From Leptolyngbya sp. Prado105 (lineage in GTDB: Bacteria; Cyanobacteriota; Cyanobacteriia; Leptolyngbyales; Leptolyngbyaceae): DNA of 64,000 nt. Both the position numbers and the translations under genes were made by a program. Positions 13,775 to 29,369 of this stretch are shown piece after piece. The DNA lies in contig JALOOO010000007.1 of assembly GCA_025454375.1 (NCBI GenBank), positions 908 through 64,907 of the forward strand, in the 5' to 3' direction. How positions within the stretch are numbered: position 1 is the stretch's first letter; every line of letters starts with the position of its first letter. The notes under the pieces were generated by a model. The model was not told where the DNA came from. It worked only from the letters and a program-made list of their open reading frames with translations, and did not search any database.

Positions 13775-14392
13775 TTAGGGAGCAATGCGAACGCGATCGC
13801 TCATATCACTGCGCTGAATCAAAGGCTGAATCTTTGCAAGATCCACATAGCGATCGGCAATATTGACTAAACTATCGCTCGTCATCGACTGCAAACTTAC
13901 GACCTCAACCTGCACCCCCCGATAAGAAACGGTATTCACCACATAGGTTAAATCCCCGTCTCCACTCAGTAAAACCATCGTGTTGCAGTATTGGGACAAT
14001 TCCAGCATATCGACTGCAATCTCGACATCTAGATTGGCATGTTTTGAGCCATCTGAATGCTGAATCAATTCCTTTGTGACCACTCGATACCCGTGGCGAC
14101 GCATCCATAAGAGAAATCCCTGCTGTTTCTCATTATTCGGATCGACCCCAGTGTAAAAGTAAGCGCGTAAAAGCCTCCGTCCCCCTGCAAGATACTCCAG
14201 CAATTTTGAGTAATCAATCTCTAACCCAAGCTGCATCGCAGCATAGAACAAATTCGACCCATCAATAAAAATTCCAACACGATCGCTCTTTAGCAAATTT
14301 TTTGGATCAGACGGCGCGAATCCGTCGTCTGAATCGTAAACATCTTCGGACTTGCCTGAAGATGTCCGACGGTTACGGGGAACAAATTGCAT
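13775..14392 (-). CDS. LabA/NYN domain protein (paralogue A, acidic motifs intact)
   Basis: IFIDGSNL, KHANLDVEIAVD, LSGDGDL, GVQVEVV, ADRYVDL. Confidence 0.92.
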   Translation of the reverse strand: MQFVPRNRRTSSGKSEDVYDSDDGFAPSDPKNLLKSDRVGIFIDGSNLFYAAMQLGLEIDYSKLLEYLAGGRRLLRAYFYTGVDPNNEKQQGFLLWMRRHGYRVVTKELIQHSDGSKHANLDVEIAVDMLELSQYCNTMVLLSGDGDLTYVVNTVSYRGVQVEVVSLQSMTSDSLVNIADRYVDLAKIQPLIQRSDMSDRVRIAP

Positions 14393-14627
14393 AGAAATTT
14401 ATGGCGAATTGTATAAAGCCAGCCTGAATTCCGGCTGCTTTCACAGTCAATCTGGCGCGCGAGCGTAAAGTATTCTGGCTTCGACTAGAGCCAATCTTAT
14501 AAATCGGGAGAAATACTCTATGCTGGGTGCTTACCGGAAGAATTCAAGACTATTTTTAGGTTTTACCGCGCTTTTCTCAATCACAGGGGATTGTGAACGG
14601 ATGGAACACGATTCGTTACTTTTATTC

Positions 14628-14743
14628 TTTTTAATTCAAAAATAAACTAACTTTAGACGGTCAGGTTTTTTGCAAATTTCTTTATTTTTTAATTCAAAAA
14701 TAAACTAACTTTAGACGGTCAGGTTTTTTGCAAATTTCTTTAT
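14628..14743. repeat. Perfect 58-bp direct tandem duplication in the AT-rich intergenic region
   Basis: TTTTTAATTCAAAAATAAACTAACTTTAGACGGTCAGGTTTTTTGCAAATTTCTTTAT at 14628-14685 and 14686-14743; TATAAT at 14741-14746. Confidence 0.95.
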
Positions 14744-14831
14744 AATGTTTTAAGATTCATATATTATTGATAAAAAAGGCTTCAATCCTATAACAGAGCC
14801 TCCAAACCTAGTTGCTCGGAGGTAAATTTAG

Positions 14832-14999
14832 ATGGAATATGGATGCTCTTTGGCAGAGGCGGCGAGACGGCTTCAGGTTGACCAAGCAACAGTTTTATTC
14901 GCGATGCAGAAAGGTGCGATTGCAACGCAGCAGAGAAATGGGCGCGTCATTGTGGCTCAAGCTGCGATCGCCGAATATCAGGCACGATCTCGTCGGTAG
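14832..14999 (+). CDS. 55-aa excisionase/HTH_17-like (MerR-superfamily winged HTH) protein
   Basis: Below the track cutoff. MEYGCSLAEAARRLQVDQATVLFAMQKGAIATQQRNGRVIVAQAAIAEYQARSRR; GGAGGT SD at 14818-14823, 8 nt before ATG. Pattern SL.EAARRL.V...TV......G.I......GR matches HTH_17. Confidence 0.8.
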   Translation: MEYGCSLAEAARRLQVDQATVLFAMQKGAIATQQRNGRVIVAQAAIAEYQARSRR

Positions 15000-15262
15000 C
15001 AGATTCAGACATTACAAGTCATCAGGCAAATTTCTTAAGCTTTCTAACAAACGGTAGCGAAATTTGCGAGGAAAAGTAATGCTCTGAATACCAATACCAT
15101 TGGGTTTTCAAATCCGTTCCATAATAAAACCCAATCTTTCTATCCCCCAAGTGCCCCCGGCATTTTTTTGGGAAAACCCTTTTTATATATGAACAATTCC
15201 CCTGCATGTGAAACGATATCGCGTTTTGCATGGGGAGAAATTTATCCGAGCTTTCGCGATTC

Positions 15263-15889
15263 ATGATCCAGTTAGTACGAGAACCGGATGGTATAGAGCC
15301 ATCACTTCCCCAAGTCCCAGAGGATTCATCCGAACAACTCCCGCTACTCTTTCCCGAAGAATTCGATGAAACAGATGCCCCTGTACATTTGCATCGAGGT
15401 CGATTGATGATTTTTATCGATGGTGCAAATTTATTTTATGCAGCGTCACAGATGGGAGTTGAAATTGATTATGCAAAATTATTGAACTACCTCCAGCAGC
15501 ACAGTACTTTAATTTATGCGTTTTTCTATACGGGCGTTGACCCTGGAAATCTCCGTCAACATGCGTTTTTAACCTGGATGCGGCGCAATGGTTATCGAGT
15601 CGTGACGAAAGATGTGGTGTTAAATGCGTCGGGGTCAAAGCGGGTGAGCAGCATGAATGTTGAGATTGCGGTGGATATGATGCGATTCGCTCAAGATTGT
15701 GACACTGAGATTTTGATTAGCGGCGATGGCGATCTCGCTTATGCGGTGAATGCCGTTTCCTATTTAGGAACGAAGGTAGAAGTAATTTCTTTACGATCGA
15801 TGACCCATGAACGCTTAGTGACGATTGCGGATAATTTTATTGATATTCTTAGTATTCGCGATGAGATTCAGAAATCTCCAAGATCTTAG
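15263..15889 (+). CDS. LabA/NYN domain protein (paralogue B, central Asp replaced by Asn)
   Basis: IFIDGANL, SSMNVEIAVD, ISGDGDL; acidic N-terminal extension. Start may be 15230. Confidence 0.9.
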   Translation: MIQLVREPDGIEPSLPQVPEDSSEQLPLLFPEEFDETDAPVHLHRGRLMIFIDGANLFYAASQMGVEIDYAKLLNYLQQHSTLIYAFFYTGVDPGNLRQHAFLTWMRRNGYRVVTKDVVLNASGSKRVSSMNVEIAVDMMRFAQDCDTEILISGDGDLAYAVNAVSYLGTKVEVISLRSMTHERLVTIADNFIDILSIRDEIQKSPRS

Positions 15890-27869: not shown

Positions 27870-29369
27870 ATGAGCAATTATTGGGCGATCGCCGTTGGAA
27901 TCAATCACTACCAGTTCCTGCAACCTCTTCATTTTGCCCAGACGGATGCCCAATTTCTCTGTGAAAGCTTGGTGAGTAATGCTGGTTTCTTACCTGAACA
28001 ATGTGTATTGATGACGGATACGTCCCCGGATTTTGCGGATCATTCGAGCGATCCCACCGCCGAGAATCTGCGCTATTGGACGACTGTATTGCAAGACAAA
28101 CTCCAGCCAGAAGATGGATTGTGGTATTTCTTCAGTGGGTATGGAGTCTGTGTCGATGGCGAAGACTACTTACTCCCGATCGATGCCGATATTTCTCGAA
28201 TTCAAGACAGGGGTTTTTCAGTGCGATCGCTGTTTCAAACCTTGAAAACGTTGCCGACGCAAAAGATTTTTGTCTTACTGGATATCAATCGATCGGCTTC
28301 AGTCTCTCATGAGAAAGTTGGAACTCAAACTGTCGCAATCGCTCGTAAAGCTGGAATTCCAACGATGTTGTCCTGTCGTCCGGAGCAGTTTTCGCATGAA
28401 GCCCCTGCCTTAAATCATGGACTTTTTACCCAGGCATTGCTAGAAGGATTGCGATCGCATCAATGCTCAACCTTGGCAACGTTAGAAGATTTCTTAAGAG
28501 ATAGATTGCCAGAGCTATGTGATCACCACGATCTCCCGATTCAAGATCCGATCCTAGTCGTATCTGATCCAGAGCAGCTTTACCGAGTGATCATGCCTGT
28601 GAATTGGGCTGAGACTGAATCTTGGGTTCCGGCACCGACAAATCCATTTTCTGTAGAAGGCGACCTATATCTGAATGCGTTAGAGTCTGAACCTGAATCT
28701 CGTTACGAATTTCAGCCGACGGTCATGGGTGCGACTACGACCGAGATTCCCGACAATCTGGTGCTGAATCCAGCCGAATATGACCCGATCGAATATCAAC
28801 CGACTGAATATGAACCCATCCAAGCCGATCTGACGCTGCCTGAAGACGCGGATCAACCTGCGCCAACGCCAACCATTTCGCCGATTCCCGAAGAGCCTGA
28901 CTTGCCGGATCAGATGTTTTGGGAGCGACTGCTGTTTGGGGGAAGTGCAGTGTTGCTTGTGCTGCTGCTAGGTGTGCTGTTCCGAAATTGGTCAGCATTT
29001 ATGGGGGGACAGCAGCAAACCGCGAATCAGAATCCTGCCACTCCAGAAGTTGCGGCATCACCTGCTGCTGCCATCGATTCTGCAAAGATCTTGAACGAAG
29101 CTCGGTCGTTTATCAAACCTACGCTAGCATCAGATGCAAATCGTGCGATTGAACGCGCTCGTGCGATTCCACCCAGTGATCCACTCTATGCTCAAGCGCA
29201 ACAAGACATCGATCGATGGAGCCGCAATATTTTAGAGATTGCACGTAAGCGGGCAGAACAGAAAGAGTTTCAACAAGCAATTTCAGCCGCCCAACTGGTT
29301 CCCAAAGATCGACCTCAAGTTTATGCTGAGGCACAGAAAGCGATCCAGCAGTGGCGCAAAGCTCGTTAG
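27870..29369 (+). CDS. Caspase-like (peptidase C14/p20) protein with substituted catalytic dyad, TM helix and helical C-terminal domain
   Basis: WAIAVGINHY..LQPLHFAQTDA; FSGYG (H->Y); LLDINRS (C->N); HGLFTQALLEGL; TM near LLFGGSAVLLVLLLGVLF. Confidence 0.88.
   Translation: MSNYWAIAVGINHYQFLQPLHFAQTDAQFLCESLVSNAGFLPEQCVLMTDTSPDFADHSSDPTAENLRYWTTVLQDKLQPEDGLWYFFSGYGVCVDGEDYLLPIDADISRIQDRGFSVRSLFQTLKTLPTQKIFVLLDINRSASVSHEKVGTQTVAIARKAGIPTMLSCRPEQFSHEAPALNHGLFTQALLEGLRSHQCSTLATLEDFLRDRLPELCDHHDLPIQDPILVVSDPEQLYRVIMPVNWAETESWVPAPTNPFSVEGDLYLNALESEPESRYEFQPTVMGATTTEIPDNLVLNPAEYDPIEYQPTEYEPIQADLTLPEDADQPAPTPTISPIPEEPDLPDQMFWERLLFGGSAVLLVLLLGVLFRNWSAFMGGQQQTANQNPATPEVAASPAAAIDSAKILNEARSFIKPTLASDANRAIERARAIPPSDPLYAQAQQDIDRWSRNILEIARKRAEQKEFQQAISAAQLVPKDRPQVYAEAQKAIQQWRKAR

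Follow-up and report, generated by a model that had tools for sequence, protein, structure and literature searches.

A 55-residue winged-helix protein encoded upstream of a LabA-like NYN gene in Leptolyngbya: a candidate local regulator

INTRODUCTION

What is a gene of 55 codons, with the look of an excisionase gene, doing directly upstream of a gene for a LabA-like NYN protein, in DNA where no integrase is found? The question is raised by a 64-kb stretch of the genome of Leptolyngbya sp. Prado105 (64,000 nucleotides, hereafter the window), in which the short gene, here called the helix-turn-helix (HTH) gene, is flanked by two NYN genes, NYN(+) and NYN(-), named for their strands. To our knowledge, paired LabA-like NYN genes are poorly understood, and a dedicated regulator, together with a covarying hairpin in the leader of one of them, could aid their study.

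Known proteins suggest more than one answer. BldC of Streptomyces is an α1-α2-β1-β2-α3 monomer that lacks a dimerisation or effector domain, binds head-to-tail to 9-bp direct repeats, and controls a dispersed regulon (PMC5859096). Gp36 of phage D29 is a small MerR-like repressor, likewise without an effector domain, that binds direct repeats and represses downstream genes (PMC12266134). RdfS exemplifies the HTH_17-class excisionases, or recombination directionality factors (RDFs), of phages and integrative and conjugative elements (PMC11963761). Here, we ask whether the 55-codon frame is a gene, what fold its product would adopt, what travels with it in related genomes, and which of these modes of action best accounts for the locus.

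RESULTS

Conservation and coding evidence

The features of the locus are collected in Table 1. The 55-codon frame and the Shine-Dalgarno sequence GGAGGT 8 nt upstream of it are present where the original prediction had placed them, and both are conserved. In particular, the sequence CGGAGGTA, the spacing between the Shine-Dalgarno sequence and the ATG, and the ATG itself are the same in all orthologous loci. A frame of 81 codons that starts at a TTG (14812..15057) overlaps the 55-codon frame in a different phase, and had been described as a spurious frame that masks it. This description holds: the frame exists, a Pfam scan of the 81-aa frame and of an antisense 80-aa frame yielded no match, and the relatives do not keep the 81-codon frame open.

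Table 1. Features of the HTH–NYN(+) locus, in positions of the window
Feature	Position	Strand	Details
NYN(-) paralogue, divergent	13775..14392	-	Pfam NYN, E 2e-34
Perfect 58-bp tandem duplication, 2 copies	14628..14743		TRF: 2.0 copies, 100% identity
Promoter-like block GCAAAtTTCTTtATaATGTTTTAAGATT	14727..14757	+	Candidate -10 TATAAT at 14741-14746
Two 14-bp direct repeats, ATAA[G/C]AGAGGCT[T/C]C-like	14770-14783, 14790-14803	+	Start-to-start 20 bp
Shine-Dalgarno GGAGGT	14818..14823	+	ATG 8 nt on (gap 14824-14831)
55-aa winged helix-turn-helix ORF	14832..14999	+	ATG start; HTH_17 / Xis / MerR / BldC-like fold
Long imperfect hairpin	15003..15089	+	Starts 4 nt past HTH stop; MFE -26.8 kcal/mol, z = -5.17
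Hairpin ATTGGGTTTT-N17-AAAACCCAAT	15099..15135	+	10-nt arms, 100% complementary; z = -2.89
Covarying RNA hairpin in NYN(+) leader	15197..15240	+	RNAalifold; ends 22 nt before conserved ATG
NYN(+) gene, LabA-like PIN-like domain	15263..15889	+	Pfam NYN, E 6e-28

Of 11 other genomes of the genus, 5 have an orthologue of the 55-codon gene, among them those of Leptolyngbya sp. AN10 and of Leptolyngbya sp. NIES-3755 (G004; LEP3755_00450, hypothetical protein). Further orthologues are carried by metagenome contigs, where the frame was called by independent gene callers. A related-locus search with the single 55-aa protein as query found nothing, and one with a 5-member alignment returned only Leptolyngbya sp. 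AN10. Conservation of the frame in relatives, proposed in the original prediction as a check, is borne out by these orthologues and by the way in which they differ from one another. Specifically, among seven copies, pairwise dN/dS is 0.08-0.28 (pairs with unsaturated dS), and the variable alignment columns at codon positions 1, 2, and 3 number 21, 17, and 44 of 56, respectively. Judged from sequence comparison, the 55-codon frame is a real gene under purifying selection. It is not new to public annotation, where it is listed as a hypothetical or HTH protein: the window's own 55-aa protein is already among the gene calls of NCBI nr, JGI, and ENA, and the gene had been hidden, as first described, only from the ORF track then at hand.

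Predicted fold of the 55-residue protein

The protein matches the Pfam family HTH_17 (PF12728) with an E-value of 1.6e-5 and a score of 25.5 bits, which is 1.5 bits below the gathering cut-off of 27 bits; the match aligns residues 6-53 with profile positions 3-50 of 51 and thus spans the full domain. The precomputed annotation of the protein database gives PF12728.14 for this exact 55-aa protein, and HTH_17 is matched by 10 of 13 family members (best E 5e-9). An AlphaFold2 model, for which three orthologues served as input, has a mean pLDDT of 82.6 for the 55-aa protein and comprises a short N-terminal strand, helices at residues 7-14, 18-26, and 43-53, and a β-hairpin at residues 32-42 (strands 32-35 and 38-42). 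The modelled topology is α1-α2-β1-β2-α3, that of the MerR/Xis-type winged helix, in which an α1-α2 HTH is followed by a β-hairpin wing and α3. The wing motif N-G-R, together with L14, G28, and R38, is invariant in the 13 family members.

A Foldseek search of the PDB with the model placed Xis of mycobacteriophage Pukovnik at the top (TM 0.78), and also returned BldC (TM 0.74-0.76, rmsd 1.7-1.8 Å), the DNA-binding domain of SoxR (TM 0.72-0.74), RacA, CbpM (TM 0.80), and Rv2018 (TM 0.67). Among the viral models of BFVD, the matches were phage HTH, excisionase, PrtN, and MerR-like proteins (TM 0.75-0.92). When a sequence profile was run against all PDB sequences, 3onq (E 0.58) was the sole match at E<=10, and BldC did not appear. 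The Pfam match, the AlphaFold2 model, and the Foldseek matches agree with one another, and the description of the product as an HTH_17/Xis-like winged helix was therefore correct. The winged helix covers the entire 55-aa protein, leaving neither a coiled-coil for dimerisation nor an effector domain, and the model is that of a stand-alone, single-domain winged helix of the MerR/Xis (HTH_17) fold.

The conserved unit and its surroundings

At every locus that has the 55-codon gene, an orthologue of NYN(+) lies directly downstream on the same strand. NYN(-) is the left neighbour in one sub-clade only (the window, genome G002, and two metagenome contigs); in the other sub-clade (G001, G004, G007, and G009), a metallophosphoesterase-like or WD40 gene occupies the left flank, and NYN(-) is absent there. 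The right flank also varies by locus, with dynamins in the window and PspA in loci L007 and L010. Since both flanks vary and NYN(+) is constant, the conserved unit is the HTH gene with NYN(+), and not the NYN pair. The original suggestion that the HTH protein regulates the NYN pair therefore keeps its NYN(+) half, which is supported by synteny, and loses its NYN(-) half; the regulatory role itself is argued from position, fold, and a candidate operator.

Orthologues of NYN(+), with 73-92% identity and no stops, are found in nine genomes within the genus and also in a single neighbouring genus. Ten orthologues share the start at 15263 (an ATG; MIQLVREPD); the longest ORF starts at the ATG at 15230. 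The dN/dS of NYN(+) is 0.04-0.17 within the genus and reaches 0.23 against the out-genus orthologue G013. All NYN(+) orthologues have the motif MNVE, with Asn where the LDVE motif of NYN(-) has Asp. Because the change is common to all of them, it is ancient and selected, and not a sign of decay. In a second motif region of NYN(+), SGDGD, two genomes that have lost the HTH gene are altered, with SGDGE in G003 (L038) and SGDGDMSYAI in G010 (L036), at an overall low dN/dS.

The remainder of the window has the gene content of an ordinary chromosome: Pfam identified GH76, a Kir-type channel, a GDSL lipase, two dynamin-like proteins, PspA/IM30, and CobQ, along with the housekeeping genes for NusB, FtsY, ThrRS, and arginine decarboxylase. 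The statement made at the outset, that the window has neither integrase nor transposase, was confirmed by a Pfam scan of every ORF of 130 aa or more in its 64 kb, which found no integrase, recombinase, or transposase, and by a search of the 73.9-kb contig, which found no match to the tyrosine integrase family PF00589; 11 tyrosine-integrase-like matches exist genome-wide, none on this contig. The GC profile shows no island apart from AT-rich intergenic DNA. A mad1 match reported by PADLOC for the locus (E 0.0026) was set aside as generic HTH similarity, with no other MADS match among five neighbouring proteins scanned, and the Pfam scan of the window found no methyltransferase or restriction genes near the HTH gene. 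Elsewhere in the window, 27870-29369 (+) encodes a protein of 499 aa whose N-terminus carries a caspase (Peptidase_C14) domain; it adjoins a HAMP histidine kinase.

Promoter-like block and direct repeats upstream of the HTH gene

The approximately 110 nt 5′ of the ATG are nearly invariant in both sub-clades. They include the block GCAAAtTTCTTtATaATGTTTTAAGATT, which hardly varies among 8 loci, including those with a different gene farther upstream, and which we regard as a putative promoter on account of its TATAAT. A sigma-70 consensus scan yielded a single plus-strand match upstream of the HTH gene, which uses a non-conserved -10 hexamer, and no conserved promoter in the spacer between the HTH gene and NYN(+). 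Just upstream of the promoter block lies a perfect 58-bp tandem duplication, of which the second copy alone runs into the TATAAT; the unit is single-copy in all eight related loci, indicating that the duplication is recent and specific to this genome.

Between the candidate -10 element and the Shine-Dalgarno sequence are two 14-bp direct repeats. The 14-bp motif, at up to 2 mismatches, occurs within the window in these two copies only, and a single tandem pair is present in the whole 5.7-Mb genome, against 0 in a reversed control. Both repeats are also exact in the second sub-clade, with exact copies in 6 locus records, which represent four relatives (G003, G004, G009, and G010). The repeats are a candidate operator for a winged-helix protein that binds head-to-tail. 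The repeats also fall inside what is presumably the 5′ UTR, and their action could instead be on the RNA. In this connection, the second repeat includes an anti-Shine-Dalgarno sequence, CCTCC (14800-14804). A hairpin in which CCTCC would sequester GGAGG was considered and was kept as a lead only: the 5′ UTR fold has a z of 0.21 against shuffles, and the alignment fold contains one compensatory pair.

The structured leader of NYN(+)

The spacer of 263 nt from the HTH stop to the NYN(+) start is as conserved as coding DNA and is predicted to contain three hairpins (Table 1). For the first, none of 200 shuffles was equally stable; its 3′ arm, GTAATGCTCTGAAT, does not vary among relatives, and its outer stem re-forms in most orthologues, with differing 5′ arms. 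The second is largely kept, apart from one G-U change and a few breaks, and shows no compensatory pairs. The third shows strong covariation. Specifically, 9 of the 10 pairs of its inner helix show compensatory changes across 9 loci; 89.5% of cells pair, versus 37-55% with slid partners; and its covariation score was reached by none of 500 shuffles. This third hairpin has no U-tract and is a candidate cis-regulatory RNA of the NYN gene. An Rfam scan of 14350-15320 found no family; its only match was a sub-threshold one to NrrF (24 bits against a threshold of 60), which we dismissed as chance.

Repeated loss of the HTH gene

The HTH gene is intact in G000, G004, G007, and G009, and is broken or missing in five of the nine genomes (G001, G003, G005, G010, and, tentatively, G002), in all of which NYN(+) is intact. 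G001 has an in-frame TGA at codon 33. G002 has a 1-nt insertion at codon 6, after which translation may restart; its wing and tail have diverged, and the otherwise invariant Arg38 is lost. G010 retains a frameshifted remnant with an internal deletion. In G003, the HTH ORF has been cleanly deleted, joining the block of promoter plus repeats to the distal spacer and NYN(+), whereas in G005 the HTH gene and the upstream block are both deleted, and the spacer and NYN(+) are kept. In a tree of NYN(+), G003 nests among HTH-bearing genomes; with this nesting, and with each lesion different from the others, the losses are independent.

The HTH gene is dispensable for retention of NYN(+) in these genomes. 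The idea that the HTH protein is an essential activator of NYN(+), which predicts relaxed selection on NYN(+), was rejected: the HTH-less genomes show a dN/dS of 0.08-0.17.

A small family with dispersed distant members

The family is tiny. A profile search of 1.84 billion representatives returned only 15 proteins at E<=1e-3, and a search of 400 genomes of the class gave strong matches in a few other families. The distant relatives have 58-86 aa, many of them with a basic N-terminal extension; relatives are annotated as ‘excisionase family DNA binding protein’ or ‘helix-turn-helix domain-containing protein’. The more distant members (38-52% identity), from other cyanobacteria, have no adjoining NYN genes, and the family is therefore not dedicated to NYN. 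No phage homologue of the 55-aa protein was found in a phage genome collection or in PHROGs.

A 62-aa homologue (L060, 44% identity, annotated as an HTH protein) is encoded by Nostoc sp. PCC 7120 at pCC7120alpha 180074-180262; on this alpha megaplasmid, its gene is divergent from a gene for an RpoD/SigA-family sigma factor and lies 1.6 kb from a transposase. PCC 7120 is a model strain, and this homologue would offer a tractable place to study the family. A homologue with 52% identity on a Calothrix megaplasmid lies ~2 kb from an integrase gene. Since these two distant homologues are on megaplasmids near an integrase or a transposase, the family may have an ancient mobile origin. In the cyanobacterial family f32, distant 72-aa members (L011-L013) have the basic N-terminal extension RRKRxxxGM and are flanked by a gene for a livG-like ABC ATPase and a gene for a 193-196-aa protein that is, by inspection of its sequence, a putative ArsR-type HTH protein.

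DISCUSSION

A local, autoregulatory factor

Our analysis of the locus reveals a conserved order of elements: promoter block, two 14-bp direct repeats, strong Shine-Dalgarno sequence, 55-codon gene, 263-nt structured spacer, and NYN(+). We favour, with moderate confidence, the reading that the HTH protein is a local regulator that acts on its own gene through the direct repeats and thereby controls the promoter and read-through into the NYN(+) leader. In this proposal, HTH monomers would bind head-to-tail on the direct repeats (14770-14803), between the -10 element and the ribosome-binding site; occupancy of the repeats would modulate, and probably repress, transcription from the upstream promoter; and the HTH protein would in this way set its own level and the extent of read-through into the NYN(+) leader. 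An autoregulatory local factor is the best reading because the tandem repeats lie between the -10 element and the Shine-Dalgarno sequence, because no other such pair exists in the genome, and because the HTH gene is strictly syntenic with NYN(+).

We infer four elements of this proposal: that the protein binds DNA, that the repeats are its operator, which sign the regulation has, and that the HTH gene is co-transcribed with NYN(+). Repression is the more likely sign, given that the site is downstream of the -10 element and that loss of the HTH gene is tolerated while NYN(+) remains under selection; both arguments are inferences. A shared promoter is supported by G003, in which deletion of the HTH ORF has fused the block of promoter plus repeats to the distal spacer and NYN(+). 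NYN(+) probably also has its own promoter in the spacer, as suggested by G005, which keeps the spacer and NYN(+) without the upstream block; with such a promoter, the HTH protein may control NYN(+) only in part or not at all. As a counterpoint to a DNA-binding role, the same fold is found in protein-protein modulators, as in CbpM.

A bolder reading would make the HTH gene, the direct repeats, the three-hairpin leader, and the NYN(+) protein with its Asp-to-Asn change a single self-contained regulatory cassette, in which the HTH protein gates transcription, the NYN protein acts on, or is controlled via, its own leader, and the losses of the HTH gene represent recurrent rewiring by derepression. 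We hold this to be rather improbable. If true, it would give a first functional handle on the LabA-like NYN paralogues of filamentous cyanobacteria.

Other explanations

The alternative to a local regulator that survives best is an orphan or global BldC-like regulator, or an architectural DNA-binding protein, with targets elsewhere, whose position before NYN(+) would reflect a shared promoter or inherited gene order. We consider such dispersed action unlikely, while giving it some weight: distant members occur in unrelated contexts (with genes for a livG-like ABC ATPase and an HTH protein, with a sigma-factor gene on pCC7120alpha, and on the Calothrix megaplasmid), and BldC itself has a dispersed regulon. 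However, the tandem direct-repeat motif is found only once in the genome, at the gene's own 5′ region, and synteny with NYN(+) is held in two sub-clades whose outer flanks differ.

A second alternative is that the HTH protein is a partner of the PIN-like NYN(+) protein, either as an antitoxin of the VapB kind or through direct contact of the kind made by TorI and CbpM. VapB proteins combine neutralisation with autorepression, TorI and CbpM are winged-helix proteins that modulate a partner by direct contact, and the genes of toxin-antitoxin operons usually overlap or abut. The order of the genes, with one for a small DNA-binding protein before one for a PIN-like nuclease, is VapBC-like, and the structural matches include a MerR-like protein-protein modulator, CbpM (TM 0.80), as well as Rv2018 (TM 0.67). 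Yet the two genes do not form a tight bicistronic operon, being separated by a structured spacer of 263 nt; the 55-aa protein is a bare domain, without a toxin-binding tail; and the genes are not co-retained. In particular, the HTH gene is broken or deleted in up to five genomes where NYN(+) is intact and under purifying selection, which argues against an antitoxin. Moreover, NYN(+) has a conserved Asp-to-Asn change in its catalytic motif, and the PADLOC output amounts to generic NYN matches plus the weak mad1 match. A partnership of this type is clearly improbable.

A third alternative, an excisionase left behind by a decayed integrative element, is very improbable. It draws on the top match among solved structures being a phage Xis, on the excisionases among the BFVD matches, and on the proximity of the Calothrix plasmid homologue to an integrase and of the PCC 7120 homologue to a transposase. 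Against this stand the lack of a cognate tyrosine or serine recombinase nearby (no PF00589 match on the contig, and neither recombinase nor transposase in the 64 kb), housekeeping flanks with no GC island beyond AT-rich intergenic DNA, a dN/dS of 0.1-0.3, which is not expected of a relic, and the absence of a PHROG match or a phage homologue. The gene does not appear to lie inside an integrative element, and the unit travels with NYN(+) rather than with element genes. For the same reasons, namely purifying selection, housekeeping flanks, and no recombinase or phage homologue, the suggestion in the original prediction that the gene is a relic of the element that delivered it is not supported, and a mobile-element relic is unlikely.

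Finally, a non-functional frame, open by chance inside a conserved non-coding (RNA or promoter) region, would fit the high conservation of the non-coding DNA that flanks the ORF and its absence from about half of the species, but is excluded for practical purposes by the codon-position pattern and low dN/dS, the full-domain HTH_17 match and confident fold model, and the independent pipelines that call the 55-codon gene.

Significance and comparison with known systems

The locus is a clean cyanobacterial case of a minimal BldC/Xis-type winged helix outside mobile elements. Its importance is modest, and it changes no general concept. More unusual are two by-products of the analysis, the covarying, multi-hairpin leader of NYN(+) and the recurrent loss of the HTH gene. 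The locus is also a simple test system, made up of a 55-aa protein, a candidate operator of 34 bp, and a single downstream gene, for which the HTH-less relatives G003, G005, and G010 provide a natural comparison series.

The locus shares with VapB systems a small DNA-binding protein encoded upstream of a protein with a PIN-like (NYN) nuclease fold, and differs from them in the long structured spacer, the absence of a C-terminal extension, and the fact that the HTH gene was lost repeatedly from genomes that kept NYN(+). Pukovnik Xis (PDB 4j2n) is close in fold and size (54-56 aa) and probably shares the Pfam family; in contrast to Xis and other RDFs, the HTH gene has no integrase, mobile context, or phage homologues, has no att sites as judged by a non-exhaustive search, and is conserved with a chromosomal NYN gene.

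BldC (68 aa; PDB 6ama and 6amk) is likewise a single MerR-type winged helix of the same topology, superimposing over ~52 residues, and, as in BldC, the 55-aa protein has neither a coiled-coil nor an effector domain; the tandem direct repeat is a possible head-to-tail site, as a candidate only. The similarity is structural, with 23-24% identity in the structural alignment and no detectable homology, or relationship, at the level of sequence. The systems differ further in that the family here is cyanobacterial and tiny, that the candidate repeats are 14 bp long at a 20-bp period rather than 9-bp units, and that a nearby target, not a developmental regulon, is likely here. D29 Gp36 is phage-encoded and has GC-rich repeats, unlike the HTH protein; like it, Gp36 is small and MerR-like and lacks an effector domain, and repression through direct repeats is the mode of action that we propose for the HTH protein.
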